DNA of 17,976 bases, from IMG/VR virus record IMGVR_UViG_3300045988_081534; one strand, 5' to 3'. The first letter of the stretch is position 1; every line of letters starts with the position of its first letter. Position numbers and translations under genes: made by a program. The stretch is from a virus. Of this stretch, positions 889-17,976 are shown piece after piece. Below the pieces are notes generated by a model. The model was given only the letters and a program-made list of their open reading frames with translations, was not told the DNA's origin and did no database searches.

Positions 889-1032
889 ATGAATTATTCC
901 ACTGTTTCTGTTAGATTAACAGAGGAAGAGAAGAAAGATTTGGAAGTCTTTGCTAAGAGTTGTGATTTAACAATGTCTTAGGTAATTAGAAAGGCTGTTA
1001 AAGAATATATTGAGAAAAATAAAATAGACTAA
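889..1032 (+). CDS. ribbon-helix-helix (CopG/Arc/ParD-like) DNA-binding protein, 47 aa, contains one in-frame TAG (979-981) read as sense
   Basis: MNYSTVSVRLTEEEKKDLEVFAKSCDLTMS-x-VIRKAVKEYIEKNKID: beta-strand then helix pattern typical of RHH repressors; SD GAGAGGTG; TAG sits where RHH proteins carry E/Q/R before the IR.A helix; stop TAA. Confidence 0.7.
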
Positions 1033-1047
1033 AGGAGATTAAACTAA

Positions 1048-1269
1048 ATGACTAATGATACTTATAAAGTTTTTACGGTAAAGTTAGCACGCAAACTCTG
1101 TGATCTTGGTTTTATTATTGTTGGAACTGTTCCTAATGTTTAGAAACCTTGGTTAAATGTTTATCTTTTTGAAGATAGTTAGGATTTAAGGGATGCAGTT
1201 TAGAAGTATAAAGGGATAAGTTCGCTATTGGAGGATGATTGCCATGGCAGACAAAAGAAGAAGTCCTAA
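1048..1269 (+). CDS. DUF5659-like small protein, 73 aa, three in-frame TAG codons (1141,1180,1201)
   Basis: SD AAGGAG 9 nt upstream; KVFTVKLARKLCDLGFIIVG...KPW..VYLFEDS.DLRDAV.KYKG matches the LA..L...GF...-N-P....F.F....EL..AV..Y pattern of DUF5659; pattern continues across all three TAGs; stop TAA. Confidence 0.6.
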
Positions 1270-1633
1270 TTAGCGAACTATTAATCATATTCATAAGGAA
1301 CCATGTGATACTAATAATATATATGCTAGGATTAATAAGGAAGCGTTATTTGCGGCCCGTAGAGAGTTGACAGATGGAGAGTTCTCTTTGTGGATATTTT
1401 TTGCTAGTCAATCTGAGAGGTTAACTGATTATGATTTTGGGCCTACTATTATAGAAAAAGAGCTTGGTATAAAGAGAGCGAAATATACAAGTGCAGTAGA
1501 TGGATTGGTAAAAAAGGGATATTTAGTTCCAGTTGAGAGAAAAGGATATTACGATTTTTACGAGATTCCTATTGATAGTGACGACGATAAATATAATTAT
1601 ATAGCTCCAGACGGAGAGAAATTTTCTTTTTAA
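1244..1633 (+). CDS. winged-helix replication-initiator / replisome-organizer N-domain-like protein, 129 aa, in-frame TAG at 1271
   Basis: GGAGG SD 9 nt before ATG 1244; C-terminal part LTDGEFSLWIFFASQ...DFGPTIIEKELGIKRAKYTSAVDGLVKKGYLV resembles Rep/DnaD-like winged helix; iteron array begins immediately downstream; the track ORF 1367..1633 is the portion after the TAG. Confidence 0.55.
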
Positions 1634-1639
1634 TCGTAT

Positions 1640-2010
1640 TTCTGCAATACTATGAAAAATTTCATGTATTTCTGAGAATACTATGATTTCATCATATTGT
1701 GAAAAAGCTATGAAATTTTCATGTATTTGTTGGAAAGCGATGAAATTAATTTCATAGTATTATCAGAATACTATGAAATTAATTGAAAAGGATTTTCATA
1801 GCTTTTTCACAATACTATGAAATTAATTGAAAAGGATTTTCATAGCTTTTTCACAATACCATGTCATAGTATTCTGACAATACTATGAAAGTAAATAAAA
1901 ATCCATTTCATGGTATTCTGACAATACAACAAATATAACATATATTAGATAACAGAGTTAAGATAACAGTTGCGACTTTTTCATGTATTTGTGAAAAAGC
2001 GATGAGTAGG
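1640..2010. repeat. AT-rich iteron array, candidate origin of replication
   Basis: more than 10 copies of AATACTATGAAA / TTTCATAGTATT in both orientations plus repeated TTCATGTATTTG; directly follows the wH initiator-like gene. Confidence 0.6.
1767..1854. repeat. perfect 44-bp tandem duplication inside the iteron array
   Basis: aatactatgaaattaattgaaaaggattttcatagctttttcac occurs twice back to back (1767-1810, 1811-1854). Confidence 0.7.
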
Positions 2011-2021
2011 AGAATTAAAGC

Positions 2022-2198
2022 ATGGAAGTATTTAAACCGATTAAGGTAGAAAATTATCAATTCATGAAAAATGGATTAAATTAGTATGAACCAGTATTGG
2101 TTTACTTTAAAGATGATGAAGAAGAAGGTAAGGTATATTTTGTAATCTTATGGAGAGAATAGGGGAGATTAATATGGCTACTTTGTAGCCATAATTAA
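2022..2198 (+). CDS. small hypothetical protein, 58 aa, two in-frame TAG (2082,2160)
   Basis: SD AGGAG 9 nt upstream of ATG 2022; single frame to TAA 2196 interrupted only by TAG; MEVFKPIKVENYQFMKNGLN-x-YEPVLVYFKDDEEEGKVYFVILWRE-x-GRLIWLLCSHN. Confidence 0.35.
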
Positions 2199-2529: not shown

Positions 2530-2973
2530 TTACTTCAAATGTCTCAAAAACTCCATGATATTGTCCTCATCAGTCTTAGCCTTATTCATACTACCTGCAA
2601 GAGCATCAGAAATAGAGTCAACAGCAATGTCAATTACTTCATCAAGACTCTTTGCATTGACTACTCGAGCGGAAGTCTTAGCAGTTACAGTCATAGCCTG
2701 CATAAACTGCTTAATATCATTTGCTGTCCACTTAGGATTGCTCTTGCTATAAACCAGCGCAGCTACACGACCAACGTCATCCTCAGTGAGAGATAAATCA
2801 TCAACATTGCCATAAAAAGTAGACTCAATCTCATCCAGAAGAATATCTCGTTCATAGTCTGCGGCGTTAGCCTCGGAGATTCTATTCATAGCATCAGTAA
2901 ATGCCTTTGCAATCTCCTCCTGAGTAGAACCATTCTGCATTGCATCACGAATCATAATCTCATAACTATTCAT
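2530..2973 (-). CDS. acidic hypothetical protein, 147 aa (candidate DNA-mimic/anti-restriction type early protein; function unproven)
   Basis: uninterrupted ORF, roughly one quarter D/E residues, no recognisable domain; no SD directly upstream; TCGACA-17-TATAAT promoter candidate at 3043-3077. Confidence 0.6.
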   Translation of the reverse strand: MNSYEIMIRDAMQNGSTQEEIAKAFTDAMNRISEANAADYERDILLDEIESTFYGNVDDLSLTEDDVGRVAALVYSKSNPKWTANDIKQFMQAMTVTAKTSARVVNAKSLDEVIDIAVDSISDALAGSMNKAKTDEDNIMEFLRHLK

Positions 2974-3042
2974 AATAAGTTCTTTTAGTTAGAAAAAGCG
3001 TTATGATGCTTCTTAAACTAAAATCCTCCTTTTCTTTATCTT

Positions 3043-3077
3043 ATGTATATATTATATTATATTTTTTATATATTGTC
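3043..3077 (-). promoter_or_regulatory. candidate promoter TCGACA-17-TATAAT for the acidic protein gene; TGTCGAA (Spo0A-box-like) heptamer at 3071-3077 followed by CCGATCGG
   Basis: read from sequence on the minus strand: ggttcgacaatatataaaaaatataatataat. Confidence 0.35.
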
Positions 3078-3710
3078 GAACCGATCGGGTCTAGATAAAA
3101 AGATCGCTTTAACGGAATCCCGCGGAAAAGATTTTTCCTTTTCAAATAGTTAGCAACATCTTTGCTATTGTTTGCTGTATCTTTAATGGTTTTAATTCTG
3201 TGAATATCAAGAAATTTTGAGAAAAACGAGGCATTTTTTGCTTATTTTTAAGTAAATTTGTTAGAAAAACGCGCATTTTTGCAAGATTTTAGAGGTTTTT
3301 CGTTATATTTTGCGATAACAAGAGGTAAAAGATTGCGGGCCGATCGGTTTATCTAGCTAAAATCTCTATTTTTGAGCTATTTTTATCATAAAATCGTGTT
3401 AAACCGATCGGTTCCGCGAAAGAAATCTCTGGTCGTATTTGTTTTTCATAGCTATATCTTTGCTATTGCTAGTTGTATTTTAGAAAGTTTTGGTACTGTG
3501 AATACTTGACAATTTTAAGATTTTTATTATAAAAAATTGGACGAGAGAGCCAATATTGCTGGACCGATCGGGGCTAGATAAAGGAAGAAGTAAAGTAGGG
3601 CCGATCGGTGTTTGGAAGAGGGCGTTATGAATTTTGGGAAAATTGCTATGAAGTTGCGTTATGGCCAAGTTGCTATGAAAATTTTGCGCTATGGTCCGAT
3701 CGGGGAAATT
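3078..3710. repeat. noncoding repeat-rich region: 6 CCGATCGG palindromes (plus one at 2401), composite CCGATCGG-g(g/t)CTAGATAAA motif in both orientations, ~140-bp imperfect direct repeats (about 3078-3220 vs 3400-3540), tandem ttgctatgaa..ttgcg.tatgg units
   Basis: CCGATCGG at 3082,3338,3404,3563,3601,3697; ctttgctattg...ctgtgaata units at 3150-3215 and 3452-3520; gaaaaacg.g.catttttgc twice (3210-3235, 3262-3285). Confidence 0.5.
3507..3540 (+). promoter_or_regulatory. candidate rightward promoter TTGACA-16-TATAAA feeding a ~240-nt region that ends at the bidirectional terminator 3757-3785
   Basis: cttgacaattttaagatttttattataaaaaa; a degenerate copy of the same unit lies at 3190-3215. Confidence 0.35.
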
Positions 3711-3737
3711 CGGGCCGAGTCGCCCGCGACCGGCCCG
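3711..3737. other. pure-GC nested palindrome cgggccg-a-gtcgc-ccg-gcgac-cggcccg
   Basis: 7-bp outer arms plus 5-bp inner arms; same class of GC palindrome recurs at 5503,6896,7782,9434,10867,12560. Confidence 0.5.
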
Positions 3738-3756
3738 CTCAAAATTTTGCATAAAA

Positions 3757-3785
3757 AAATCTCCCCATAAGGGGAGATTTTTCTT
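3757..3785. terminator. bidirectional rho-independent terminator (atctcccc-ataa-ggggagat with A-run on one side, T-run on the other)
   Basis: 3759-3778 hairpin; ends the minus-strand gene 3785..4135 and any plus-strand transcript from 3507-3540. Confidence 0.65.
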
Positions 3786-4135
3786 TAGTTGAGAATTATT
3801 GGATATGCCTTGCGAATAACCACCGTAACCATGGCCGGGGGAGTGTCGCACAAGAAACGATCATTTCTGATAAAACGACCAATTCCCATATTCTGCCACA
3901 AAGTCCGGTTTACATCCTCGTATCGTAGGGTATTATACTTGGAAAGTTTGATATGCCAATCATAGATAAAGGAACCATCTTCCGGCATGGTGTAATCTGG
4001 CGCCCGCTTATAATTTCTCGTATGCTCTGCGGCTCTGCGTTCAAGGTCATTTGTCGTACCAATCTTGAGAATATAGCGCCCCTTTTTGTCGATATAATGT
4101 CCGACATATAGGAACTCTTTTCCCCTTGTCTGCAA
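3785..4135 (-). CDS. T5orf172 / GIY-YIG-like domain protein
   Basis: FLYVGHYIDKKGRYILKIGTTNDLERRAAEH...P...E matches the YVY...KIG.T....R..E motif of T5orf172 (DUF4357/Mug113) GIY-YIG-related domains; start is TTG in the track (start uncertain); stop TAA. Confidence 0.65.
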   Translation of the reverse strand: MQTRGKEFLYVGHYIDKKGRYILKIGTTNDLERRAAEHTRNYKRAPDYTMPEDGSFIYDWHIKLSKYNTLRYEDVNRTLWQNMGIGRFIRNDRFLCDTPPAMVTVVIRKAYPIILN

Positions 4136-4191
4136 ACTAACTATAACTTGCCTCTTTTCTGGTAGGGCCGGGGTAGGCCGACCCTACCCCG

Positions 4192-4509
4192 TTATTTCTT
4201 CGGCTTACGCTTTTGCACAAGCGTCAACTCGAAACTATCCCCACCAATAGAAAACGCAATCTGTCTTTCCTTGTTAGTAATAGACAAGTCAGCGATAGAG
4301 AATTGACTGTTTTTTTCCAAAAACTCTGCCAATTCCGCAATTATACCGCCTTTCGTGGCGTTTGGCTTGCGTTGCCGTGTAGTGAACTTATATGCGGTTG
4401 GCTGTTTGCGCGTTCCAGCATGGGCAAACTTTTGAGCGATTTTCGCCTTTTCTGGCGGTAAATCGTATTCAGTCTTTTTATCAGCCTCTACCGCCTTATC
4501 ATAGGCCAA
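4192..4509 (-). CDS. hypothetical basic protein, about 105 aa, TTG start
   Basis: GAGGAGG SD 8 nt upstream of TTG at 4509; no in-frame ATG upstream before a TAA; K/R-rich C-terminus; hairpin ggggtagg/cctacccc (4170-4190) directly after the stop. Confidence 0.55.
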   Translation of the reverse strand: MAYDKAVEADKKTEYDLPPEKAKIAQKFAHAGTRKQPTAYKFTTRQRKPNATKGGIIAELAEFLEKNSQFSIADLSITNKERQIAFSIGGDSFELTLVQKRKPKK

Positions 4510-4647
4510 TAAATCTGCCTCCTCTTCCGGCGTTAATTGCAGGGCTTTATACCTTGCAATCCGTTCAGCGTCACTAATGCGACTGGATATAATATCACCC
4601 CCATATTATAAGTTAGGGCGGGGATTTTCACCCCGCCCTATACGGGG

Positions 4648-5049
4648 TTACGCCATCTTAAAGAGGGACTTGCCCTTCTTCTCCGTGCAGACTACTCGAC
4701 CATCGAGTTTCAACTGCCGCACAAGAGCGGCGACCTTCTGGTTAGAATAGGCCGTCAGATCAGGAATAGCCTTAAAAATTTCCGTGCAGGTCACGCCATC
4801 GGTATCGGCGTCCAGACCAGCCAGATACTCCATAATCTGCTCCTTAAAGTTTTCGTTCTCCTGCTGGGTGGGAGTCAGCTTCTTGTCACCGCTGGAGCTA
4901 TTCTTCTTACGCAGAAGCTCCAGCTCATGGTCAATGATAGTAATGGCCACCTCGATGGTAGTGCCATACTTTACCTCGCCGTCAGTCAAGAGGGCCTTAA
5001 TGTCCTCAAAACGCTGGGCCTTGGTAATGCGGATTTTCTTCTCGTCCAT
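4648..5049 (-). CDS. hypothetical protein with C-terminal winged-helix-like segment; served by three tandem promoters
   Basis: likely start is the 4th Met (MDEKK...) with AAAGGA 8 nt upstream; TEIFKAIPDLTAYSNQKVAALVRQLKLDGRVV resembles a wH recognition unit; stop TAA followed by hairpin agggcgggg/ccccgccct (4613-4638). Confidence 0.6.
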   Translation of the reverse strand: MDEKKIRITKAQRFEDIKALLTDGEVKYGTTIEVAITIIDHELELLRKKNSSSGDKKLTPTQQENENFKEQIMEYLAGLDADTDGVTCTEIFKAIPDLTAYSNQKVAALVRQLKLDGRVVCTEKKGKSLFKMA

Positions 5050-5097
5050 AATATACATCCTTTCTGGTTTTTAGGACTGTCCTTGTCCTTTGATTAT

Positions 5098-5126
5098 ATT
5101 GTACCACACTATTTGGTACTTGTCAA
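5098..5126 (-). promoter_or_regulatory. promoter P3: TTGACA-17-TGgTACAAT (extended -10)
   Basis: minus strand cctcttgacaagtaccaaatagtgtggtacaatataatc; -35 at 5121-5126, -10 at 5098-5103. Confidence 0.55.
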
Positions 5127-5192
5127 GAGGTTTTTCAAACTTTTTTCAAGAACTTTTGCTCTTTACTTGTTTGCCCTCTCAACCTCCCTTAT

Positions 5193-5221
5193 AGTGTAAC
5201 ACACTTTGGAAAGTTTGTCAA
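5193..5221 (-). promoter_or_regulatory. promoter P2: TTGACA-17-TACACT
   Basis: minus strand gggcttgacaaactttccaaagtgtgttacactataagg. Confidence 0.4.
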
Positions 5222-5269
5222 GCCCTTTTTATTTAATTTTCAAGGTGCATTGCCTTGTTTTCTGTACTT

Positions 5270-5298
5270 ATTATAGCACATCTTCAAAGGCTTGTCAA
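5270..5298 (-). promoter_or_regulatory. promoter P1: TTGACA-17-TATAAT (perfect consensus)
   Basis: minus strand ctcttgacaagcctttgaagatgtgctataataagtac. Confidence 0.55.
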
Positions 5299-5403
5299 GA
5301 GATTCTTGAAAGATTTTTGAGAAATTCGCTGTCGCTGTCTGCCGTTCGTCTCTCTCACTTTCTGAATGTATTTTACCACAAGCAAAAGCAGATTGCAAGC
5401 GTC

Positions 5404-5529
5404 AAATTGCACAAAAAATCGGAATTTTGGGAGAGAGTTTTTGTGCAAAATTCTGCACAAAAACGGGACGAAATTTTTGTGCAACATTACCATTGAAAAA
5501 TTCGGCCCGCGTCAGCCATCCGCGGGCCG
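5404..5529. promoter_or_regulatory. control module upstream of P1-P3: two inverted repeats ATTGCACAAAAA...TTTTTGTGCAA (5404-5452, 5453-5486) and GC palindrome cggcccgcg-N9-cgcgggccg (5503-5529)
   Basis: read from sequence; same TTGCACAA/TTGTGCAA arrangement recurs at 6841,7727,9380,10809,12513. Confidence 0.45.
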
Positions 5530-5554
5530 TCGACCTTTTAGATATAAAAAAAAT

Positions 5555-5576
5555 AAGAGGGCTGTAAAGCCCTCTT
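5555..5576 (-). terminator. rho-independent terminator aagagggc-tgtaaa-gccctctt followed (minus strand) by a T8 run
   Basis: stop codon of 5575..5760 lies inside the 3-prime arm; near-identical copies at 6949-6968 and 7840-7859. Confidence 0.6.
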
Positions 5577-5760
5577 AAATATCAATCATATAACTATAAA
5601 CCATATCCCAAAGCGGCATATCATCCAGAAGGATATTTACAGTCAAAAGTCCGGTTTCTGTCGGCCCATCAACAAACCATCCCAGCCGCTGCATAAGGTG
5701 AATAACCTCATAGACATAATCGGGGTCAAGATGGTTAGTGGTAAACTGTCTTGAAAACAT
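5575..5760 (-). CDS. hypothetical protein, 61 aa
   Basis: SD AAAGGAAAAG upstream of ATG; start lies just after hairpin cgggcggggc/gcccctacccg (5777-5801) that contains the stop codon of the upstream exonuclease gene. Confidence 0.5.
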   Translation of the reverse strand: MFSRQFTTNHLDPDYVYEVIHLMQRLGWFVDGPTETGLLTVNILLDDMPLWDMVYSYMIDI

Positions 5761-5787
5761 TTCTTTTCCTTTCTATCGGGCGGGGCT

Positions 5788-6579
5788 TTAAGCCCCTACC
5801 CGAATTGTCGGATTATTTTTCAAACTTGCGGAAAGTTGACGCTGAAAATCTGTCATAGGCGGAAACTCTCTTTTATTCTCATACAGGGCCTTTCTCATGG
5901 GCTTATGCTGACGCATACAATACCACATGATTTCCGCCTCAATCAGAACATCCTCAAGCCCCGTATGACTTTCTTCAAAATCGGTATTGCCAGAGATAAA
6001 CCGCCACACGATTTCCGCAGTCTTGCGGGGGACACCATTAGCCTGGACATATCCGTTTTCCTGACAGAATTTCTTATAAGTGGGCATATTGCAGATAACA
6101 TCCTGTGTCATCTTCATAATATCCCAAATCTCCACGCTGTCAAACGGGAACCAATAACGCCACTTGGAGTAGGTCACATAACGCTGTGTAACTCTCAAGG
6201 CATTATCGTCAAATCTGGCATTATAAGCCGCAACTTCCTTAATGCCGTATCGCTCAATGGTATTGAGCATAACTTGGCGGATTTCATAAGTGGTAGCCAT
6301 TTTACGAGTGCCGGCCCGCAGTTCCTCAATATAGCGGGGAATTTTCCAATTATAATAAGCAGTCCGCATGAGATCCCGCTCATCGTTGAAAATGTCCCTA
6401 TTTACAAAACTGGCAGTTTCATAAATATTGCCCTTGGTATCCACTACCGCCCATCCGCAATCATAGACAAGAACGCAACTCATATCCATGCGGGCTTTGC
6501 CGTTTTCGTCAGTTTCAGTCAGTGTGTTAGCAGTTTCAGTATCAACCACCAAAACATAGTGTCTACGCTTATCAATCAT
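5788..6579 (-). CDS. DEDDh (DnaQ-like) 3-prime to 5-prime exonuclease, 263 aa
   Basis: ExoI YVLVVDTETAN, ExoII AAYNARFDDNAL, ExoIII HTGLEDVLIEAEIMW; SD AAGGAAG 9 nt upstream; the 250-aa plus-strand ORF 5836..6588 is its antisense shadow. Confidence 0.75.
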   Translation of the reverse strand: MIDKRRHYVLVVDTETANTLTETDENGKARMDMSCVLVYDCGWAVVDTKGNIYETASFVNRDIFNDERDLMRTAYYNWKIPRYIEELRAGTRKMATTYEIRQVMLNTIERYGIKEVAAYNARFDDNALRVTQRYVTYSKWRYWFPFDSVEIWDIMKMTQDVICNMPTYKKFCQENGYVQANGVPRKTAEIVWRFISGNTDFEESHTGLEDVLIEAEIMWYCMRQHKPMRKALYENKREFPPMTDFQRQLSASLKNNPTIRVGA

Positions 6580-6611
6580 AATCTTTGACTTCCTTTCCTC
6601 TTGTTGAGTTT

Positions 6612-6640
6612 ATTATAGCACATACCATGCTTGATGTCAA
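6612..6640 (-). promoter_or_regulatory. perfect consensus promoter TTGACA-17-TATAAT for the exonuclease gene
   Basis: minus strand cttgacatcaagcatggtatgtgctataat. Confidence 0.6.
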
Positions 6641-6804
6641 GAGGAAAAGGAAATTTTTATTGCGATTTACTGCAAGCTACTGGGCATTAGAACGGCCTAT
6701 TCTAACGGCGTTCACTCGACTTACGACACAATATAAATTTACTTCCTTTACTTTCTAAGAGTTCGCGACCTCTTGATTTCTTGGCCTTCCCCTCTTGACA
6801 AATA

Positions 6805-6922
6805 TATAATACCATACTTTCGGGATAATTACAAGATGGCAAATTGCACAAAATTTGCAAGCCAAAATTGTGCAACATCGACAAAAACAAAAACTCGGCT
6901 CGCCGCGTGCGCCAGCGAGCCG
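6805..6922 (-). promoter_or_regulatory. control module: promoter TTGTAA-17-TATTAT (6805-6833), inverted repeat AAATTGCACAAAA...AAAATTGTGCAAC (6841-6876), GC palindrome cggctcgc-N11-gcgagccg (6896-6922); no intact gene follows this promoter
   Basis: read from sequence; downstream of the promoter there is an AAGGAAG SD (about 6736-6742 on the minus strand) but no start codon. Confidence 0.35.
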
Positions 6923-6948
6923 CCCAAACGATATTAAAGAGTAAAAAT

Positions 6949-6968
6949 AAGAGGGCCGAAGCCCTCTT
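6949..6968 (-). terminator. rho-independent terminator aagagggc-cgaa-gccctctt
   Basis: identical stem-loop to 7840-7859; stop of 6967..7155 inside the stem. Confidence 0.6.
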
Positions 6969-7155
6969 AATATCCAAGATATTCTTTATTGATAATCTCG
7001 TCAAGCCAATAGCTCAAATCTTCAAGCGAAATATCGTCATCAATTTCATTGTCGGCCATAGCCTGATCAATTTGACCAATGAGAATGGACGCATTTTTCA
7101 ATACTTGTCGCTCTTCCTCGCTGAGGATAAGCCTATTAACCTTTCTATTCTTCAT
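6967..7155 (-). CDS. hypothetical acidic protein, 62 aa
   Basis: SD AAGGAAG 8 nt upstream; clean ORF to TAA. Confidence 0.5.
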   Translation of the reverse strand: MKNRKVNRLILSEEERQVLKNASILIGQIDQAMADNEIDDDISLEDLSYWLDEIINKEYLGY

Positions 7156-7195
7156 TTACAAAACTTCCTTTCTTATTTTAAGATTGACTGGTGGA

Positions 7196-7660
7196 TTACT
7201 CTACCAGTCGCCATAAGGCCGTAGGTAAATCTTCATGTGGCTCGATTGTTTCCCCTAAATGCCAGCCATCCCGCACACTTTTATTATCATCAATCAAAAT
7301 GAAATTGCTAATTCCCGGCTCAAAGTGTTTCCGCACACAATTTGCTTTTGTTGTGCCATATTCCACAAGGTGGACTTTATGTGCGGGGAAGTTGTATTTT
7401 GCAAGCCAAGTGCGCTTTGCGTCACGAACAGCAGTTTTATATGAGTTAGAACTGTCTTTTGCAAGCCAACTGATAACCCGAATTTCCCAGCCCTGCTCAA
7501 TGAGTTTATTAAGAACGGTATTCAATTCTTCTATATCGCAAAGAGGTTTGGCGACTGTATATGGATAGGGATTTTCATTCATTAAATCTTTTAACCAATC
7601 ATCCACGCCGTACAGGTCAGCGATTGTTCCATCCATATCAAAGCAGAGCATCTTTTTCAT
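7196..7660 (-). CDS. HAD-superfamily 5-prime(3-prime)-deoxyribonucleotidase (NT5C-like)
   Basis: motif I CFDMDGTIADL at N-terminus, C-terminal FILIDDN motif; overall NT5C-like spacing; SD AAGGAAG. Confidence 0.7.
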   Translation of the reverse strand: MKKMLCFDMDGTIADLYGVDDWLKDLMNENPYPYTVAKPLCDIEELNTVLNKLIEQGWEIRVISWLAKDSSNSYKTAVRDAKRTWLAKYNFPAHKVHLVEYGTTKANCVRKHFEPGISNFILIDDNKSVRDGWHLGETIEPHEDLPTALWRLVE

Positions 7661-7692
7661 TTTGATTTACTTCCTTTCTTTAGGTTGATTAA

Positions 7693-7808
7693 AGTATATC
7701 AGATTTCGGGATAGAAAACAAGAGGCAAACTGCACAAAATTTCGGCTGGAAAATTGTGCAACTTCTACAAAAGAGAAAATTCGGCGCGCCACGCACGTTA
7801 GCGCGCCG
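7693..7808 (-). promoter_or_regulatory. control module: promoter TTGTTT-17-TATACT (7693-7721), inverted repeat AAACTGCACAAAAT...AAAATTGTGCAAC (7727-7762), GC palindrome cggcgcgc-N11-gcgcgccg (7782-7808)
   Basis: read from sequence; spacer contains tatcccgaaa as in the 6805-6833 promoter. Confidence 0.4.
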
Positions 7809-7839
7809 CCGAGAAGCCTATTCAAAAAATGGGATAAAA

Positions 7840-7859
7840 AAGAGGGCCGAAGCCCTCTT
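7840..7859 (-). terminator. rho-independent terminator aagagggc-cgaa-gccctctt
   Basis: hairpin plus T-run on the minus strand immediately after the SpoVT-like stop. Confidence 0.6.
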
Positions 7860-8851: not shown

Positions 8852-8855
8852 CCCC

Positions 8856-10701: not shown

Positions 10702-10755
10702 TTCTTTTACTTCCTTTCAAATTCTTTTTGTGACCTTGCCCCTCTGGACAAGTAT

Positions 10756-10895
10756 ATAATAACACATGACAAGAGGAATGTCAAGTAATTTCGGGAGAAA
10801 ATCTTTCGTCAAATTGCACAGACTTTCGATCATATAATTGTTGAAACTGCCGGATAAATAAAAATTCGGGCCGCGGCGCACGCTGGCGGCCCGGC
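10756..10895 (-). promoter_or_regulatory. control module: promoter TTGACA-17-TATTAT (10756-10784), half-site TTCGTCAAATTGCACAGAC (10809-10825), GC palindrome cgggccgc-N13-gcggcccg (10867-10895)
   Basis: read from sequence. Confidence 0.45.
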
Positions 10896-10926
10896 GAAAA
10901 GTCAATATGGAAAAGTGCATAAAAAT

Positions 10927-10957
10927 GACTGGCAATCTTTGTGCAGATTGCCAGTCA
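10927..10957 (-). terminator. rho-independent terminator gactggcaatc-N9-gattgccagtc preceded by an A-run (T-run on the minus strand)
   Basis: 11-bp stem. Confidence 0.6.
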
Positions 10958-10969
10958 AGTATTATTCCT

Positions 10970-11203
10970 TTACAGCTCCATGGTTTCCATGAGATAGCCC
11001 GTGCCCATCGGCACCTCCCGCAGATTGCTGGGACTTATACGCAACTTATATTTCCTATTGATTTTATTCGCCGCACTTGTCTTATCTCTTGCTTGGACAA
11101 TTACTGGTATATGGAGTTTATTCAGAGTGGGCTTATTAAAACTGAAATATCCCATCTCTCTGCGCTTGCGGCCCATGGCGTCGATATAAGTCCCTCTATA
11201 CAT
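10970..11203 (-). CDS. hypothetical basic protein, 77 aa
   Basis: SD TAGGAGG; clean ORF. Confidence 0.5.
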   Translation of the reverse strand: MYRGTYIDAMGRKRREMGYFSFNKPTLNKLHIPVIVQARDKTSAANKINRKYKLRISPSNLREVPMGTGYLMETMEL

Positions 11204-11216
11204 TTTTTTCCTCCTA

Positions 11217-11369
11217 TTATTTAGTCATGAGAACGAACATATTATATTCGCTGTGCTGTGGGTTTGGCTCACAGTTATCCGCCACTATATCAGCCCAACT
11301 AAGAACTGCCCAGAGTAGGAGAGCGGCACAAATGCCGCCTCCTATCCGCTTAATAATTCTCATTTCCAT
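11217..11369 (-). CDS. small membrane protein, 50 aa; start overlaps the stop of the upstream gene (ATGGAAATGA)
   Basis: MEMRIIKRIGGGICAALLLWAVLSWA... hydrophobic helix; not in the ORF track (below 60 aa). Confidence 0.35.
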   Translation of the reverse strand: MEMRIIKRIGGGICAALLLWAVLSWADIVADNCEPNPQHSEYNMFVLMTK

Positions 11370-11662
11370 TTCTTTGCCTCCTGTTCTTTAACCCATTCAG
11401 TACCGATTGTATCTCCGACCATAGCAACCTTATATTCGTCTTCGCTTGCAATTCTGGTATGCAGATTGCTATTGATAAACTTTCTATTGATATAAGCCCA
11501 GTGTGGCATATAGGCCACTCGCATGGCATTAAAAGCATCCAGGTCTAAGATAATGCCGTCCTCTACCTCTGCGGAACGCACATTCATCTTATACCGCAAA
11601 AGTTTAATAAATTCACGCTTTCTAAAAGTAGGCCCAACGAACCACTTAATATAATTGTTCAT
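11360..11662 (-). CDS. hypothetical protein, 100 aa
   Basis: SD GGGAGAAAGGA; clean ORF. Confidence 0.55.
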   Translation of the reverse strand: MNNYIKWFVGPTFRKREFIKLLRYKMNVRSAEVEDGIILDLDAFNAMRVAYMPHWAYINRKFINSNLHTRIASEDEYKVAMVGDTIGTEWVKEQEAKKWK

Positions 11663-11708
11663 AGTCTTTTATCCTTTCTCCCCGTATAGCCGTTAGGTCA
11701 GCTTCTTT

Positions 11709-11855
11709 TTAATCTACGATTTCTCCACTGGATAAATCCACAATCCAATGATTAGGATTGACTATCTCGTGACTGACCTTCCATCTTGCCATTGAAAGGG
11801 TGGATGGTTCATAATAGCGCATTTTCTCATTGGCTAAAACTTGTAACTGATACAT
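11709..11855 (-). CDS. possible small protein, 48 aa
   Basis: AAGGGG 8 nt before ATG; MYQLQVLANEKMRYYEPSTLSMARWKVSHEIVNPNHWIVDLSSGEIVD. Confidence 0.3.
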   Translation of the reverse strand: MYQLQVLANEKMRYYEPSTLSMARWKVSHEIVNPNHWIVDLSSGEIVD

Positions 11856-11886
11856 ATAGTATGCCCCTTTCTTTTAATTATTATAA

Positions 11887-11918
11887 CCCTGCCTTACCTT
11901 GTGTTTTGCAAGGCAGGG
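11887..11918 (-). other. 9-bp-stem hairpin ccctgcctt/aaggcaggg after the stop of 11930..12304; no T-run
   Basis: read from sequence. Confidence 0.4.
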
Positions 11919-11929
11919 TTTATAAACTG

Positions 11930-12304
11930 TTATCCTCTAATTTCTTCTTCTTGGGTCTTTGTCGCCCAATCAAAAGAGGTACGAACATCGGAAGGTCTGC
12001 GGAATTGCTCTGCTTCGGCCTTTGTCCCGCCTAATGCCATAGCATAGGCTTTCCAGTCAACCGTTCCTTTTGCGGTAGTTTCTTTATATACCACCGCTTT
12101 CGCCTTACCCTGCATTTGTACCGTGCCATATAGATAACTTGTTTTGTCCGTAGCCTTAAAAGCCTTACCTAATCTGGAAAATAGCTCTTTAGCCTTAGCC
12201 TTAGCTGCTTTCTCCGCCGCCTCCGCCGCAGACTTAGCCATCTTAGCGGCCATATACTCCATAATAATGGCTCGATCTTCATTGGTAAAATCAATCTTTT
12301 TCAT
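11930..12304 (-). CDS. hypothetical Ala/Lys-rich protein, about 124 aa
   Basis: start MKKIDF with SD AAAGGGAG; the track ORF extends upstream through the promoter to an unsupported TTG. Confidence 0.55.
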   Translation of the reverse strand: MKKIDFTNEDRAIIMEYMAAKMAKSAAEAAEKAAKAKAKELFSRLGKAFKATDKTSYLYGTVQMQGKAKAVVYKETTAKGTVDWKAYAMALGGTKAEAEQFRRPSDVRTSFDWATKTQEEEIRG

Positions 12305-12356
12305 ACTCTTTTGACTCCCTTTCTTTTTGTGGTGTGGTTCTCTTTTGTTCTGGCTG

Positions 12357-12571
12357 TATTGTATCAAACCTTTAGCAGTTTGTCAATACCTTTTTTGAAA
12401 TTTTTTAATTTTCAAAGTGCCGTGCTTTTGTCTTTGTCCTACTGGACAAGTCCAGTTTACCACCAAAATGTTCACTTGTCAATAGTTTTTTTGAAATTTC
12501 TTTCTCTCTCTTTTGCACAAAATAAATAACATCTTGTTGTGCAGTTTGCATAAACCCTTTACGCGCGCGTA
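12357..12571 (-). promoter_or_regulatory. control module with two tandem promoters (TTGACA-17-TgaTACAAT at 12357-12385; TTGACA-17-TGgTAAACT at 12454-12482), palindrome actggac-aa-gtccagt at 12443-12458, inverted repeat TTTTGCACAAAA...TGTTGTGCAGTTT (12513-12544), GC palindrome tacgcgcgcgta (12560-12571)
   Basis: read from sequence. Confidence 0.45.
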
Positions 12572-12744
12572 TTCCTTTAGGGGCGTGCTTTCTTGCTTTC
12601 GTACTTTAACGAGTGAAAGAGGCCAACTACACTTCAATACTTTACCATGTGAAAGAGGGGCGTGTATTTTGGGAAAAACTGGAAATTTTTTTGTAAAATC
12701 GTTCTGCCACGCCATTTCAAAATCTAAATCGACTTTTCAATCTC

Positions 12745-12785
12745 AATAACGAAAAAGAGAGAAGAACTCACTTCTTCTCTCCGCA
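12745..12785 (-). terminator. rho-independent terminator gagaagaa-ctcac-ttcttctc plus T-run on the minus strand, ending the FolD/PARG/Pth2 operon
   Basis: 8-bp stem; stop codon of 12768..12911 within it. Confidence 0.6.
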
Positions 12786-12911
12786 TTTACACTTCTTTTT
12801 TAAATTATATATAATATGATCTTCTACTTTGTAAATTGGATATAATTCTCCACAGACTGCGCATATATTATAATAATGCTTGCCGTCAAACCATACTAAT
12901 ACTTTATCCAT
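12768..12911 (-). CDS. small zinc-ribbon-like protein, 47 aa
   Basis: MDKVLVWFDGKHYYNICAVCGELYPIYKVEDHIIYNLKKKCKCGEKK with CxxC...CxC; ATG overlaps the stop of the lipoprotein gene (ATGGATAA). Confidence 0.35.
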   Translation of the reverse strand: MDKVLVWFDGKHYYNICAVCGELYPIYKVEDHIIYNLKKKCKCGEKK

Positions 12912-13146
12912 CGTCGGTTGCCTCAAAACTAAAAATCAAATTATATCCATCCTCAGTTTCTATCGTTTCATATCCTTTTAAGATATATCCATCCTCTAGT
13001 TTAATATTAATCGCATCAGATCTCCACATTGTAGGAATATACTCTAGCCTTGGATAACGATTGTTCTCCTCCACGCAAGCAGTCAACAATAGTAAAATCA
13101 AAACTATATTAATTATAAAGCTGATACTTCTTCCCAATTTTGTCAA
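12904..13146 (-). CDS. small secreted lipoprotein, about 80 aa (candidate superinfection-exclusion type)
   Basis: TTG start with GGAGG 9 nt upstream; signal peptide MTKLGRSISFIINIVLILLLLTAC with lipobox LTAC; the track ORF starts at an earlier TTG (13176). Confidence 0.55.
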   Translation of the reverse strand: MTKLGRSISFIINIVLILLLLTACVEENNRYPRLEYIPTMWRSDAINIKLEDGYILKGYETIETEDGYNLIFSFEATDDG

Positions 13147-13546
13147 TTTCTTCCGCCTCCATTGGCCTAAATCCAATACACGTCAAAGTCCCTTCCGGGC
13201 CTTCGCGTTCTAACTCTGTTCTACAAGCATCATAGATAAGCCAATAATCCTTATTCTCTTCCCATCCTAATTCTTCTGCTATCTTAACAGCCTTTAACAA
13301 ATCATTCTTATTCTTCGCTCTACAAACTACTTTGGTCTCCGCTTCCGCTATCCAATTATGGAATAAGTCTCTATCGAGGCTTATTCCTATATGATACATA
13401 AGACCGTCTCTTTCTTTAACAACTTCTTTACTTCCCCAATATAACTTTTCCAAAAGAAAAGCAATAGAAGCATGGGAAACTTGTGCGGCAAGTTTCCCTG
13501 GAGACATATTTAAGTCTCGCCTCGCAATAATTAATTGCTTGAACAT
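13109..13546 (-). CDS. pth2: Pth2-family peptidyl-tRNA hydrolase
   Basis: MFKQLIIARRDLNMSPGKLAAQVSHASIAF... and C-terminal LIYDACRTELEREGPEGTLTCIGFRPM match PTH2 (archaeal/eukaryotic type) motifs; GGAGG SD; start overlaps the PARG-like gene by 16 nt. Confidence 0.75.
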   Translation of the reverse strand: MFKQLIIARRDLNMSPGKLAAQVSHASIAFLLEKLYWGSKEVVKERDGLMYHIGISLDRDLFHNWIAEAETKVVCRAKNKNDLLKAVKIAEELGWEENKDYWLIYDACRTELEREGPEGTLTCIGFRPMEAEEIDKIGKKYQLYN

Positions 13547-14298
13547 TTTTCCAAAACCTCCAAGAAAATTCTAAAATTGCGGGAATTGCGGTTTGGAATC
13601 GCAAAATAGATATTTGGAATATTATAATTGCGGGCTGCGTTTACGAGCAAGGTAGCGACCGTTGATGGATCTTGCATAAAAACACCACAACCCCAGGCTC
13701 CCGCGATTAAATTTTCCACTCCTTTAGCCTCGGCAATTTGATACATAAAATTAATTCTCTCTTCCATTATCCTATTGTTTAGAGAAAGAGGAACTTGCTG
13801 ATAAGTATGTGCTGTTCTATAATTAGGAGAAGCACAAGTAATTACATCAGCTAATTTTCTACTATCGTCTTTTTCAAAGACTACATCAGGAGTATAGATA
13901 GCTCTATCAAGATATAGGGCTCGATTCAGTCTCTGTCTATTCCATGCGTAATAAGTATCATCAAAAGCAAGAAGAATAGGGTAAAGGTTGCTTTCGTGAC
14001 ACAATGCCTCTTCTTGTGCAGAGCTGCCTCCAAGGAAGTAACCACCTGGATGTTTATAGCTTGCATAATTTAAGATCGCAGTCTTGCTCCGATCGGTTAA
14101 ACCGAATAGACAGGATACACTATCTTGGTCTTTAAGATAAAAGGTATTATGGTGGGTTTCTCGCGGTTTTTGCGGAAAAGGAAGATTGGGGCCAAAAATT
14201 TCAGAGTTTATAATTGCGCGATCTGTATCTTCCTTGAGTCTCACTTTAATGTCTGCGTAATGCGATTGCGCGTGTTGTTTGAGCTCTTCTCGTTTCAT
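13531..14298 (-). CDS. bacterial-type PARG-like macrodomain protein (DUF2263/TIGR02452), ADP-ribose glycohydrolase family
   Basis: NYASYKHPGGYFLGGSSAQEEALCHESNLY contains the GGG-X6-8-QEE PARG signature; GAWGCGVF macrodomain motif; SD GGAAGAAAGGA. Confidence 0.75.
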   Translation of the reverse strand: MKREELKQHAQSHYADIKVRLKEDTDRAIINSEIFGPNLPFPQKPRETHHNTFYLKDQDSVSCLFGLTDRSKTAILNYASYKHPGGYFLGGSSAQEEALCHESNLYPILLAFDDTYYAWNRQRLNRALYLDRAIYTPDVVFEKDDSRKLADVITCASPNYRTAHTYQQVPLSLNNRIMEERINFMYQIAEAKGVENLIAGAWGCGVFMQDPSTVATLLVNAARNYNIPNIYFAIPNRNSRNFRIFLEVLEKCSSN

Positions 14299-14342: not shown

Positions 14343-14522
14343 TTAATTATCCCAATCTTCAAATAAAGTGTGTAAACTATTTGTTTCCGCCGCCAATCTC
14401 TTTAAATATTCTTTAAGAATTTTATTTTCTTTAACTTTAATTGCATAATCGCAAGTATTGTCGCAGTCTGGTGTGTACTACCGACCGAATCTATTATAAC
14501 AATAATCAATACAAGGACACAT
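14343..14522 (-). CDS. possible small Cys-rich protein, 59 aa, one in-frame TAG
   Basis: ATG 1 nt after the TAA of the upstream gene; MCPCIDYCYNRFGR-x-YTPDCDNTCDYAIK...; weak support. Confidence 0.25.
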
Positions 14523-14523
14523 T

Positions 14524-14877
14524 TTACTCATATTTACACCCATTCATTCTACAGTCTATCGTGCATTGCCCTGACGCTCCTTCACAAGGAATAGCATCAG
14601 GATAGTATTCAAAATAAGACGAAGTTAATAGAACTTCATATCCAAGTTCCCGCAGTATTCTTTCTGCGACATATCTATCTCTTAATTTAATCCATTCTTC
14701 TCTATTTACTTTTGTTTCTTCATATATTTTTCGAGATTCTTCCATATCTATTGTTATGATACCATCGGTGTTAGTTTTAAATACTGAAGGACTTTGTGTA
14801 TGATAAAATTTTCGAAAGGGATTGTTAATATGAAGAACTTCTTCAGCATATTTGTCAAAATCTCCCGAAAATTTCAT
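14524..14877 (-). CDS. hypothetical protein with Cys-rich C-terminus, 117 aa; ATG overlaps the FolD TAA (TAATG)
   Basis: start MKFSGDFDKY...; the track ORF begins at an upstream Met that lies inside FolD. Confidence 0.5.
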   Translation of the reverse strand: MKFSGDFDKYAEEVLHINNPFRKFYHTQSPSVFKTNTDGIITIDMEESRKIYEETKVNREEWIKLRDRYVAERILRELGYEVLLTSSYFEYYPDAIPCEGASGQCTIDCRMNGCKYE

Positions 14878-15662
14878 TATCTTTGCGCCTGTTTCGCTAA
14901 CTATAAACAATTTTTCATCAACCCCAATCTTGTTAATAGACCTACTCCTCCGGGGACAGGAGTTGACCATACATTATTTCTTTTTGCAATTTCATCAATT
15001 TCTACAAAGTCTCCAAGAGTAATTCCTGCTTCATTTCTGCGAATACCAACATCTATAACAATAGCGTTAGGACAGGCTTCTCTTGTTAAGCTAAATTTTC
15101 CTACCGCAGAGACAATTAAATCTGCTTGCCTTGTTAAATAGAGTTTTGTATTTATATCTGTTTTGCTATGACATACTGATACAGTCATATTTCTATCTAG
15201 TAGAGCTTTAGCCATTGGCTTTCCTACAATGTCGCTTCTTCCCAAAATAACAGCAGATTTACCTTCGTAGTTAAAACCACATTCATCCAAATAGTCTATA
15301 ATTCCTCTTACTGTTGCTGGAGTAATATTGCTCATAGGATTTAAACCATCCGCATCTTTAGAGATAGGTATTTGACTATAATTGAAATCAATTCCATTTG
15401 CTACTGGCATTTGAACTATTACCGCATCCCAGTCTTTCACATGGTCTAAGATCAATCTTAACTCTACTGAACTATTAGCTCTAAACACTTCTGCTTCCCA
15501 ACCAAGAGCGTTAAAGTCTTTTATTTTATTACGAATATAAATTTGATTTGCGGGATCCTAGGCTGTTGCGTCGATAATCATGAGTGATGGAACATTACCA
15601 CTAATCTCCCGCAATTTGTTTACCTATTGTTGAAAATATTCTTTTATATTAATCTATTGCAT
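14877..15662 (-). CDS. folD: bifunctional methylene-THF dehydrogenase / methenyl-THF cyclohydrolase (FolD) homolog with 4 TAG codons read as sense
   Basis: ATVRGIIDYLDECGFNYEGKSAVILGRSDIVGKPMAKALL...TPVPGGVGLLT is canonical FolD; upstream frame PSLMIIDATA-x-DPANQIYIRNKIKDFNALGW matches the FolD N-domain (LAVILVGDDPASQVYVRNK) through TAGs; GGAGG SD 9 nt before ATG 15662; after TAG 14901 the tail LAKQAQR-TAA matches the FolD C-terminal consensus; the track ORF 14901..15488 is a fragment. Confidence 0.75.
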
Positions 15663-15981
15663 CTGGATCAAGCCTCCAAGGATCACTAGTATCGTAATCA
15701 ATCATTTCATAGAAAGATATTTCATTTTCATTAACTTCTAATACCTAGTGAGGAATACACTATACTTCATAATCAAAATCTTTATTAATATGGTAAGAAG
15801 TATATATATGAATAGCAATAGGTCTAGGATCATTAACTCCCTAAATATCCCATAAACTTATTGCTTTATTTTGGAAGATTTCCTAAGCATACTATGGAGA
15901 TATAGCAATACTGATTATTAAGATATTAAAATAATACTATGCTTTTTCCGGTAAATCTAAATATGGTTCGTCAAAGAACAT
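15649..15981 (-). CDS. hypothetical protein, 110 aa, 7 in-frame TAG codons
   Basis: ATG 15981 with GGAG upstream; no TAA/TGA for 333 nt; ends at TAA 14 nt inside FolD; not callable with standard code. Confidence 0.4.
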
Positions 15982-16018
15982 TGGCAAACAAATCTCCTAT
16001 CTTATTTTTTATAATTAT

Positions 16019-16083
16019 ATTATAGCATTTTTAAATAAATTAATCAAATAAGATTTGACAATCTAGTTTTTTTTTGTTATTAT
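16019..16083. promoter_or_regulatory. back-to-back divergent promoters: leftward TTGATT-17-TATAAT (16019-16047) and rightward TTGACA-17-TATTAT (16055-16083)
   Basis: read from sequence; the -35 hexamers are 7 bp apart. Confidence 0.5.
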
Positions 16084-16110
16084 ATGAGTATAAAAGGAGA
16101 TGACAGTATG

Positions 16111-17154
16111 ATAAAATTAGATTATACTATTGAGTCTCCAGAAGAACGGAAGGCGCTTGTCGAAAAAATAATCGCAGAAAATCCGAACTTTAGTTCGAGT
16201 TATTTAGAAATATTAGCAGATTATTTAGTTCTATGTATGGAAAAGCAAGAGAAGAAAGAAAAGAATATATTAACAGATAATAGAATGGCTACTGTTAATA
16301 AAAGAGAATGTTCTTTCGAAGGGCTTGCGTCATAGATGGAAAATGGCGAGGATGGCATTTATGGTTTAATGTCAGAAAATAAAAATGTTATATTTTAGCC
16401 AAAGATTTCTATTACACAGAAAGATTTAGATACTATACCATGTTTAAAATAGTTGAGAGAAACCATTAATGTCTGGGAGGGCGCTTTAAAACGCGCTGCT
16501 GGGACAAAATAGGCATATATGATGAAAAAAGCATTAATAGAGATGCGAAAAGATTAGTATATCATTAAGCAAGCATATTAGAAACCTATTATACCATGTA
16601 AATTAACGAGATCCGTAAGAACTCATATTCCTCTTGATGATTAGAGTTATCTTAATGGACAGGAGGTAGTAGTAAAGGGTATTTCGCTAATGGACGCCAA
16701 TGTTGTTTCTGCTATTTTATGCAATTATTCAAAATTAAAAGAAGATAGTTATGATTAGTTTGAGGGAGATACATGGTATTTAATTCAATCATTTGAAGAA
16801 ATATGTGATAAAGCTCTTAAAGACTTTCCAATCTATTTACGAATTGTTGAACTCAAAATTGATAAAAAGTAGAATAACGAAATATAGGAAATATTAAAAA
16901 ATGAGTTTGGTAAAACATATAGTGTTGAATATATTTCTAGCCTATGGAGAAATAAGATTCCTAAACTCATTGCGGAAGAGGCTTTAGAAGATTTTTTACG
17001 TTGGTAGTATAAACAAAAAGGATACCCAATGAAAAAATGTTCTAAGTGTGGGCAATTAAAGCCAGCCCATAATCAATTCTTTTCAAAGAATAAGACAAGC
17101 AAAGATAACTTATATAGTATCTGTAAGCGCTGTCGCAATAAGAAAAGAGGTTGA
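16111..17154 (+). CDS. hypothetical protein, 347 aa, C-terminal C4 zinc ribbon, 11 in-frame TAG codons
   Basis: AAGGAG 8 nt before ATG 16111; single frame to TGA 17152 with TAG at 16333,16396,16450,16510,16555,16579,16642,16756,16870,16885,17005 and no TAA/TGA; C-term KKCSKCGQLKPAHNQFFSKNKTSKDNLYSICKRC; the track shows only the first 83 aa. Confidence 0.6.
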
Positions 17155-17160
17155 TTATAA

Positions 17161-17976
17161 ATGAGCCATTATTGTAAAAAATGTGGTAAAACTATGGATG
17201 ATACATAGTTTTATACATCAAAAAATTTAGAGAAGTATCCTCCAGATGGAAAGATGGATATTTGTAAAAAGTGTCTTACTATGCACGTAGATAACTGGGA
17301 TCCAGAAACTTATAAATGGATTTTATAGGAGATTGACGTTCCATATATTAAAGAAGAATGGAATGGTTTATTGGAGAAATATGGAAAAGATCCAAAGAAG
17401 GTTACTGGATTAACTATTATTGGACGCTATTTATCTAAAATGAAATTAAAGCAATGGAATAAATACACTTGGGCAGATACAGAAACGCTAGAGAAAGATT
17501 CCATTGATAAAAAAGTTCTTAATATGAAAGCTCAAGGATTTACAGAAGATGAAATCCAAGAGCAGTTGTCTATTGATAGAACTCCTCCAAAACCAAAAGA
17601 ATTAGAGGATGTTTAGGCCCCTGTAGGAACTCCAGAATATGAAGATCCAGAGGAAGATGATGATTTTGGTGATTAGCTAACCGAAGAAGATAAATTAGTA
17701 TTACGTCTTAAATGGGGCCGCGGATATTCTTGGGAAGAAAGAGTAAGAATGGAGCAGCTTTACAATGATATGATGAGTTCTTATGATATTCAAGGAGCAG
17801 GCCATAAAGATACTCTTATTATGGTATGTAAAGCTAGTTTAAAAGCAAATTAGTTAATTGATGCTGGAGATATTGATGGCTTTTAGAAGATGCAAAAAGC
17901 CTATGATAGTTTAATGAAAAGCGGCAAATTTACGGCTGCTTAGAACAAAGGCGAATCCGGTGAATTTGTAGATTCA
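17161..17976 (+). CDS. hypothetical protein with N-terminal C4 zinc ribbon (YCKKCGK...DGKMDICKKC), at least 271 aa, runs off the window; 7 in-frame TAG
   Basis: AAGAGG SD 10 nt before ATG; TAG at 17206,17326,17614,17668,17848,17881,17938; the track fragment 17371..17616 is internal. Confidence 0.55.

Follow-up and report, generated by a model that had tools for sequence, protein, structure and literature searches.

TAG as a probable glutamine codon in a subset of genes of a gut phage related to Enterococcus phage EF1 and phAss-1

The IMG/VR virus record IMGVR_UViG_3300045988_081534, a stretch of 17,976 nt with a GC content of 37% (the window, meaning the whole of the DNA analysed), is very probably (about 93%) part of the genome of a large siphovirus-like phage of gut Bacillota, which belongs to the Enterococcus phage EF1/phAss-1 group and decodes UAG as glutamine (genetic code 15). 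A total of 35 in-frame TAG codons are spread over nine of the 32 genes called in the window (28%; 31 of the 32 are complete and one runs off the window end). An earlier reading of the letters alone, referred to here as the original prediction, had proposed a phage-like element in which TAG is a sense codon, most likely for glutamine. The relatives of the window are large siphovirus-like phages of the EF1/phAss-1 group, and the comparisons presented below support TAG as a sense codon in the window genes.

TAG recoding, the partial-recoding pattern and recoding within this phage group have all already been published (PMC10607447; bioRxiv 10.1101/2021.08.26.457843; PMC9523058). The reading of TAG in the window matters mainly for correct gene annotation and reveals no new mechanism; the standard-code annotation splits the sigma-like, small-terminase-like and FolD genes and, downstream, the TerL and portal genes into fragments. 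The original prediction went too far in stating that recoding changes every gene call here, as only nine of the 32 genes carry TAG and a central 12-kb block is nearly free of it.

Reading frames that continue through TAG

The region from 16084 to 17976 contains the sigma-factor-like and small-terminase-like genes, in which a recount gave the 11 and seven TAG codons originally claimed (Table 1). Its coding frame has no TAA and one TGA in 628 codons; read in the remaining two frames, this strand shows 98 TAA or TGA in 1260 codons. Chance is excluded as the cause of the open frame, because one TAA or TGA was found where about 49 are expected (P ~4e-21).

Profile searches of Pfam and PHROG were run with TAG written as glutamine. 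The 356-residue sigma-like protein aligns in a single stretch with PHROG 5767 ('sigma factor') over residues 39–354, across a gene with 11 TAG codons, and the product of 17161–17976 aligns likewise with PHROG 3314 over residues 4–271. In FolD both Pfam FolD domains match, PHROG 7320 covers residues 5–258 in one stretch, and FolD chains from the PDB align from residue 4–7 to residue 257–259, across three TAGs. The RHH product is matched by Pfam DUF6290/RHH_1 and by PHROG repressor families over residues 4–45, through its TAG, and Pfam DUF5659 falls on residues 3–55 of the DUF5659-like product (E=1e-4, just under the gathering score). Homology had been proposed to continue through TAG in these last three proteins, and the profile hidden Markov model (HMM) and phmmer alignments are unbroken across the TAGs.

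Comparison with the related locus L008 shows how the sequence has evolved beyond the first TAG. In the sigma-like gene, the differences at codon positions 1, 2 and 3 number 25, 8 and 78, with 70 synonymous to 19 nonsynonymous changes; in the PHROG 3314 gene they number 14, 2 and 75, with 69 to 14. Beyond the first TAG both genes thus evolve as coding sequence does, with a persistent third-position and synonymous bias and under purifying selection. In related recoded loci the coding density rises from 0.45–0.51 to 0.76–0.87 under code 15, a gain that is missing from non-recoded relatives.

The use of stop codons points the same way. All 31 complete genes terminate in TAA (26) or TGA (5) and none does so in TAG, which extends to all of them the earlier remark that gene ends are only TAA or TGA. 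TAG accounts for about 11% of stops in non-recoded relatives, and the probability of finding none here is ~0.024 (computed with n=32).

Table 1 Features of the window: TAG-containing genes, the TAG-free block and the promoter-like site upstream of the sigma-like gene.
Feature	Coordinates	Strand	Remarks
RHH (CopG/Arc-like) gene	889–1032	+	1 sense TAG (979–981); stop TAA
DUF5659-like gene	1048–1269	+	3 sense TAG (1141, 1180, 1201); stop TAA
HTH-like gene	1244–1633	+	1 sense TAG (1271–1273); stop TAA
Block of 22 minus-strand genes	2530–14298	-	TAG avoided as sense codon and stop
AbrB/MazE-like gene	9543–9776	-	1 sense TAG (9702–9704); sole TAG gene of the 2530–14298 block
Open reading frame, 66 aa	14343–14543	-	1 in-frame TAG (14478–14480), kept in 7 close relatives
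FolD (methylene-tetrahydrofolate dehydrogenase/cyclohydrolase) gene	14877–15662	-	4 sense TAG; stop TAA
Gene of unknown function	15649–15981	-	6 sense TAG; stop TAA
Sigma-70-type promoter-like site	16055–16083	+	TTGACA-17-TATTAT plus TG extension, immediately before the sigma-like gene; consensus match only
Sigma-factor-like gene (PHROG 5767)	16084–17154	+	11 sense TAG, 0 TAA; stop TGA; 356 codons
Small-terminase-like gene (PHROG 3314)	17161–17976	+	7 sense TAG, no TAA/TGA; 272+ codons, runs off the window

The three plus-strand genes at the left of the window had been described as preceded by Shine–Dalgarno (SD) sequences and interrupted only by TAG; they hold one, three and one TAG, end in TAA and have an SD-like GGAG motif each. 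The motif is AAGGAG for the DUF5659-like gene, whose TAGs are kept in close relatives, and GGAGGA upstream of the ATG at 1244 for the HTH-like gene, in which the match to HTH_36 is weak. The TAG site of the RHH gene is CAA in one relative, and that of the AbrB/MazE-like gene is CAA in 10 related loci and TAG in three. The lowest coordinates of the FolD TAG codons are 14901, 15558, 15624 and 15654, and the tail of the gene reads as first described, with TAG at 14901–14903, then LAKQAQR, then TAA. For the gene at 15649–15981, direct counting gave six TAGs and not the seven claimed; the seventh (15997–15999) precedes the start codon and falls within the SD region. Two TAG sites of this gene are CAA in relatives, and its protein has no match in Pfam or PHROG.

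The true start of the sigma-like gene is likely the ATG at 16108. The PHROG 3314 gene has tblastn matches in 70 phage records, and certain Bacillus phage records name it terminase small subunit; in relatives its full-size product has 389 aa, and a TerL-like gene with 14 TAG and a portal gene with 12 come next. An open reading frame at 2022–2198 (+; 58 codons, two in-frame TAGs), outside the list of 32 genes, has a protein-like translation and may be an additional recoded gene.

The amino acid at TAG and the suppressor tRNA

A scan of IMG/VR with the sigma-like protein gave 80 loci at 57–97% protein identity, several of them with 93–99% DNA identity to the window over most of its length. The sigma-like orthologues contain in-frame TAG in 67 of these loci and none in 13. 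Codons were compared at all 35 in-frame TAG sites across these ~80 related phage contigs. CAA and CAG predominate among the aligned codons, TGG is absent, and relatives have CAA or CAG at 21 of the 35 sites. Seven sites (16333, 16396, 16450, 16555, 16870, 16885 and 17326) are occupied almost solely by TAG, CAA or CAG in 59–79 loci, the exceptions being one CAT, two CGA, one AAA and, at 17326, four GAA. The related locus L013 has no TAG in these genes and at 15 aligned TAG sites carries CAA ten times and CAG twice.

A likelihood comparison over 22 sites, with substitution profiles taken from the window's own sense codons, placed glutamine first, ahead of glutamate by 35 nats, histidine by 39, tryptophan by 45, lysine by 48.5 and tyrosine by 45 or more. 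The residues aligned to TAG are glutamine in 56% of cases, compared with 66% at the window's own CAA and CAG codons. These comparisons of related sequences support the assignment of TAG to glutamine, as the original prediction had thought most likely.

That prediction had also named a tRNA-Sup(CUA) and a release factor 2 (RF2) gene as things to look for. The window holds no such tRNA, and one was found on near-identical contigs about 26.5 kb away. Four near-identical contigs are 96–146 kb long. Scans of the first 60 related loci for tRNAs found nothing. A walk of ~30 kb along the relatives' contigs leftward of the window revealed an array of ~30 tRNAs with a transfer-messenger RNA (tmRNA), and beyond the array a 76-nt tRNA(CUA), for example at L102:17400-17475, ~26.5 kb left of the window start. 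It is present on the closest contigs (L101, L102, L103 and L106) and also in L104 and L105, relatives at 80–90%. Three contigs, IMGVR_UViG_3300045988_091188, _080502 and _081499, are 98–99% identical to the window over large parts, and the fourth contig bearing the tRNA(CUA), _084596, is linked to it only through a 95%-identical protein match. On _091188 the gene sits among TAG-free genes.

The tRNA(CUA) scores 59.8 bits on the Rfam tRNA model, carries G73 and may plausibly be charged with glutamine, because the central U35 of its anticodon is a main identity element for glutaminyl-tRNA synthetase (GlnRS). With the tRNA-Sup-CTA of phAss-1 at 62539–62610 it shares 84% identity. One of the three phAss-1 tRNA-SUP-CTA genes, which of them not being stated, was typed as Gln by tRNAscan-SE (PMC10607447).

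Several observations weigh against this account of decoding and of the host. The tRNA and Rfam scans of the window itself gave no tRNA and no Rfam match, and the tRNA(CUA) is present for the phage species, as read on near-identical contigs and not on this exact molecule. Its charging with glutamine is putative: the acceptor stem opens with a U1·U72 mismatch, and in the anticodon arm the tRNA is about as similar to the tRNA-Trp of the phage as to its tRNA-Gln (overall identity 71% and 68%, respectively). A search for an RF2 gene by the GGQ motif of class-I release factors found none in ~60–75 kb of the 96–146 kb of the closest contigs. RF2 and GlnRS genes are optional accessories of the code change and occur in certain clades only. 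No GlnRS was found, although no search aimed at GlnRS was made. The metagenome-assembled genome bins that contain relatives are of mixed taxonomy, and host inference from them is weak.

Three other explanations of the TAG codons were weighed. If TAG were a normal stop, the interrupted frames would be pseudogenes or fragments of a decaying or misassembled element, which would fit the many, if short, standard-code frames that remain and the central 12 kb, which is unaffected. The same in-frame TAGs are, however, kept in independent contigs at 60–97% identity, where they alternate with CAA and CAG, and with the coding bias after the first TAG, the unbroken HMM matches and the lack of any gene ending in TAG they make this explanation extremely improbable. 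It is also very unlikely that TAG is translated as an amino acid other than glutamine, such as tryptophan, glutamate, lysine, tyrosine or pyrrolysine. ARAGORN by default labels the tRNA(CUA) 'Pyl', and TAG makes up ~3% of codons in these genes, far above known pyrrolysine usage. Tryptophan, to whose tRNA the anticodon arm and G73 point, is disfavoured by the absence of TGG among the ~80 relatives. Lysine stands at six of 11 TAG sites in a single comparison with the contig MT836163 and was rejected after the ~80-genome comparison. The FolD TAG sites align with variable D/E/K/H positions in the PDB chains, from which the amino acid is not identifiable. Against all of these stand the predominance of CAA and CAG, the likelihood margins given above and the report of the orthologous phAss-1 tRNA family as Gln-type (PMC10607447).

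The recoding could finally be a property of the host, a bacterium that reads UAG as sense; the phage would then match its host, and the code would not change in the course of infection. In favour of this, TAG stops are missing even from the TAG-free block. Against it, we know of no bacterium in which TAG is reassigned to glutamine, the phage species has its own tRNA(CUA), and in sister phages with 60–72% protein identity TAG terminates genes and never serves as a sense codon. A sharp split into TAG-free and TAG-rich genes like the one seen here has been described where recoded phages infect hosts with the standard code (bioRxiv 10.1101/2021.08.26.457843). A recoded host has only a slight probability.

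Other RNA genes were seen on the relatives' contigs. A 74-nt 'tRNA-Leu(caa)' of class-I size, with a homologue that reads 'Ser(tga)' (L091:12229-12302, L096:13919-13992), was suspected to be a hidden suppressor and rejected, because it has no CUA anticodon. A tRNA-like sequence missed by ARAGORN (L100:5200-5290) has the Tyr anticodon GTA. A 117-nt Rfam tRNA match at L102:9544-9660 may contain an insertion. Distant relatives (L108:2236-2326, L119:2966-3056 and similar) carry a 91-nt tRNA(CUA) with a long variable arm, which resembles the 88-nt phAss-1 Sup tRNA at 62445–62532, and the clade therefore has at least two suppressor tRNA types. The tmRNA of the tRNA array (L102:6675-6990, on IMGVR_UViG_3300045988_091188; Rfam 114.6 bits) encodes the tag DNDYFENYLAA; it occurs also in L105, L108, L110, L112 and L116 and is absent from close relatives such as L101 and L106. 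Conserved tRNAs with an 8-nt anticodon loop are found in distant relatives (L108, L109, L110 and L112:9869-9942, L119:9870-9943, L109:2826-2900 and L112:4606-4680); ARAGORN gives them the four-base anticodons 'taaa' and 'tgtt', and they may serve in frameshifting or in the decoding of quadruplets, or may just be atypical tRNAs.

The TAG-free block and a possible timing of expression

The nine TAG-containing genes flank the central block on both sides, with a single one inside it, and 21 of the 22 block genes are without TAG. The ratio of TAG to CAA or CAG is 1 to 71 in the block and 34 to 27 in the other genes (Fisher P=7.5e-14). The GC content is 40–50% in most of 3600–12600, 32–39% at the block edges and 27–34% in the TAG-using parts (1–2600 and 14400–17976), and CAG makes up half of the CAA and CAG codons in the block and five of 27 elsewhere. 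This sharp compositional mosaic could reflect an early-gene constraint or a foreign origin.

The block encodes a T5orf172 protein, an SpoVT/AbrB regulator, a PTH2 peptidyl-tRNA hydrolase and a microbial-type poly(ADP-ribose) glycohydrolase (PARG). Promoter-like sites number 93, compared with 58±8 in shuffled sequences, with the best matches on the minus strand of the block, and intrinsic-terminator-like sites number 32, compared with 12.6±3.3. Among the sigma-70-type promoter-like sites with a TG extension on the minus strand, the agreement is 12 of 12 positions at 6640–6612 and 5298–5270 and 11 of 12 at 12386, 10784, 8851 and 5126. Because it is TAG-free, has a higher GC content and contains near-consensus sigma-70-type promoters and terminators, the block is probably an early region transcribed by the host.

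A scheme for the infection can be proposed from these features. The host would use the standard code, and after infection its RNA polymerase would transcribe genes that lack TAG both as sense codon and as stop, from near-consensus sigma-70-type promoters and with terminators of their own. Charged with glutamine by host enzymes, the tRNA(CUA) of the phage would accumulate and outcompete release factor 1 (RF1), after which the TAG genes, among them those for the sigma-like factor, the small-terminase-like protein, TerL, the portal protein and FolD, would be translated. TAG would thereby also delay the translation of middle and late genes. The temporal part of this scheme is weakened by the FolD, RHH, DUF5659 and HTH genes, which bear TAG and are not obviously late.

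Tentatively, and at clearly less than even odds, TAG may act as a translational timer aimed at the sigma-like factor, and the change of code would in this way be linked to the onset of late transcription. The sigma-like gene, behind a host-type promoter (16055–16083) and with 11 TAG codons, would be transcribed at once and translated only when tRNA(CUA) had accumulated. The central block would in that case be a 'code-neutral' module: because TAG is avoided both as sense codon and as stop, the switch would leave its reading unchanged, and it could be exchanged between recoded and non-recoded phages.

Some further elements were noted in and around the block. The PTH2-type peptidyl-tRNA hydrolase and the microbial-type PARG genes lie side by side at 13109–13546 and 13531–14298 (-), and the presence of a peptidyl-tRNA hydrolase deserves notice, given that the phage also has a tmRNA and ~30 tRNAs of its own. 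An intergenic module is repeated between minus-strand genes at 6806–6968, 7704–7859 and 10810–10957 (copies 62–79% identical), with partial copies at 3706–3782, 5454–5577 and 9377–9460. In it, one or two terminator hairpins (e.g. AAGAGGGCTTCGGCCCTCTT and, after it, a GC-rich 10-bp stem) precede an inverted repeat, TTGCACAA...TTGTGCAA, which could be the binding site of a regulator. The sole megablast match to a GenBank phage, 93% over 58 nt at 8800–8857, is to an unannotated intergenic part of phAss-1 (133521–133579) and coincides with a minus-strand TTGACA-17-TACAAT promoter-like site with a TG extension (8851–8823). Directly 3′ of the HTH gene at 1244–1633, about seven imperfect 30-nt palindromes (TTTCATAGTATT...AATACTATGAAA) lie in 1628–2005; the array has the look of operators or iterons and may mark an origin or a regulatory region.

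Relatives and comparison with known recoded systems

The contig _091188, of which 57 kb was reconstructed, extends the TAG-using region beyond the window: its TerL-like, portal, small-terminase-like and sigma-like genes carry 9–14 TAG each, and four large genes at 78.7–82.9 kb, one of which matches a PHROG of unknown function, carry 2–5. The TerL-like gene (37773–39518, 581 aa) is matched by PHROG 15503 in its N-terminal half only and by PHROG 24618 in its C-terminal half only. As each of these families matches one half of the protein, their alignments suggest that both were built from TAG-truncated gene calls.

In pairwise tblastn comparisons, the TerL protein is 50% identical to that of EF1-type phages, 44% to that of phAss-1 and 62% to that of MT836163, an unannotated faecal contig. 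Identity with EF1 is 38% for the sigma-like protein, and identity with phAss-1 is 34% for the PHROG 3314 protein. The gene order sigma-like, PHROG 3314, TerL-like, portal was read in a relative contig (clade identities 34–62%), and in both EF1 (L003) and phAss-1 the match to TerL is immediately preceded by a PHROG 3314 homologue. By these sequence relationships the window phage belongs to the wider EF1/phAss-1 group. It is of a different species from phAss-1 and probably also of a different genus, and its host is probably a member of the Bacillota rather than the Bacteroidota. In the NCBI taxonomy, phAss-1 is placed with the Lak phages in a 'Caudoviricetes code 15 clade'. With recoded and non-recoded sisters side by side (67 and 13 of the 80 loci), the clade is good material for the study of how TAG recoding arises and how it times expression.

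The phage phAss-1 (OQ749652), of the 'Phassvirus' group, was reported to have TAG-to-Gln recoding in 28% of its open reading frames and three Sup tRNAs (Babkin et al. 2023, PMC10607447); of the wider group, which includes Enterococcus phage EF1, some members are recoded and others are not (PMC10607447). Like the window phage (nine of 32 genes), phAss-1 is a large siphovirus-like gut phage that reads TAG as glutamine in a subset of its frames, and both have tRNA-Sup(CUA) genes (read for the window phage on near-identical contigs), large tRNA arrays and no dedicated aminoacyl-tRNA synthetase that was found. They differ in that nucleotide similarity is confined to the 58-nt promoter-like stretch, that one tRNA(CUA), and not three, is seen in the readable parts of the window phage's genome, and that the tmRNA of the window's closest relatives is not annotated in the phAss-1 records examined.

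Code-15 gut phages in general comprise crAss-like phages, Lak phages and the clades of Borges et al., who report that only 26–71% of genes are recoded on average per clade and propose a model in which standard-code-compatible early genes come before a switch driven by the suppressor tRNA (bioRxiv 10.1101/2021.08.26.457843). Proteomic proof of code 15 exists for crAss-like phages only (Peters et al. 2022, PMC9523058). The window phage shares with these phages the concentration of TAG in structural, packaging and late genes, the presence of standard-code-compatible genes elsewhere in the genome, a phage-borne suppressor tRNA (here read on the near-identical contigs) and the mixing of recoded and non-recoded genomes within one clade. 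Unlike them, it has a probable Bacillota host, no RF2 was found in the part of the closest contigs searched, and a theta (hepatitis delta virus-like) ribozyme, which was looked for beside the tRNA(CUA), was not found (compare PMC10879173).

The decoding proposed here also recalls a much older system. In classical amber suppression, supE of E. coli is a tRNA-Gln(CUA) and su7 is a CUA tRNA derived from tRNA-Trp that is charged with glutamine. There, as would be the case in the window phage, a tRNA with a CUA anticodon inserts glutamine at UAG in competition with RF1. Suppression by supE and su7 is the leaky phenotype of a mutant, whereas in the window phage the same reaction would be obligatory for the decoding of ~3% of the codons in essential phage genes.

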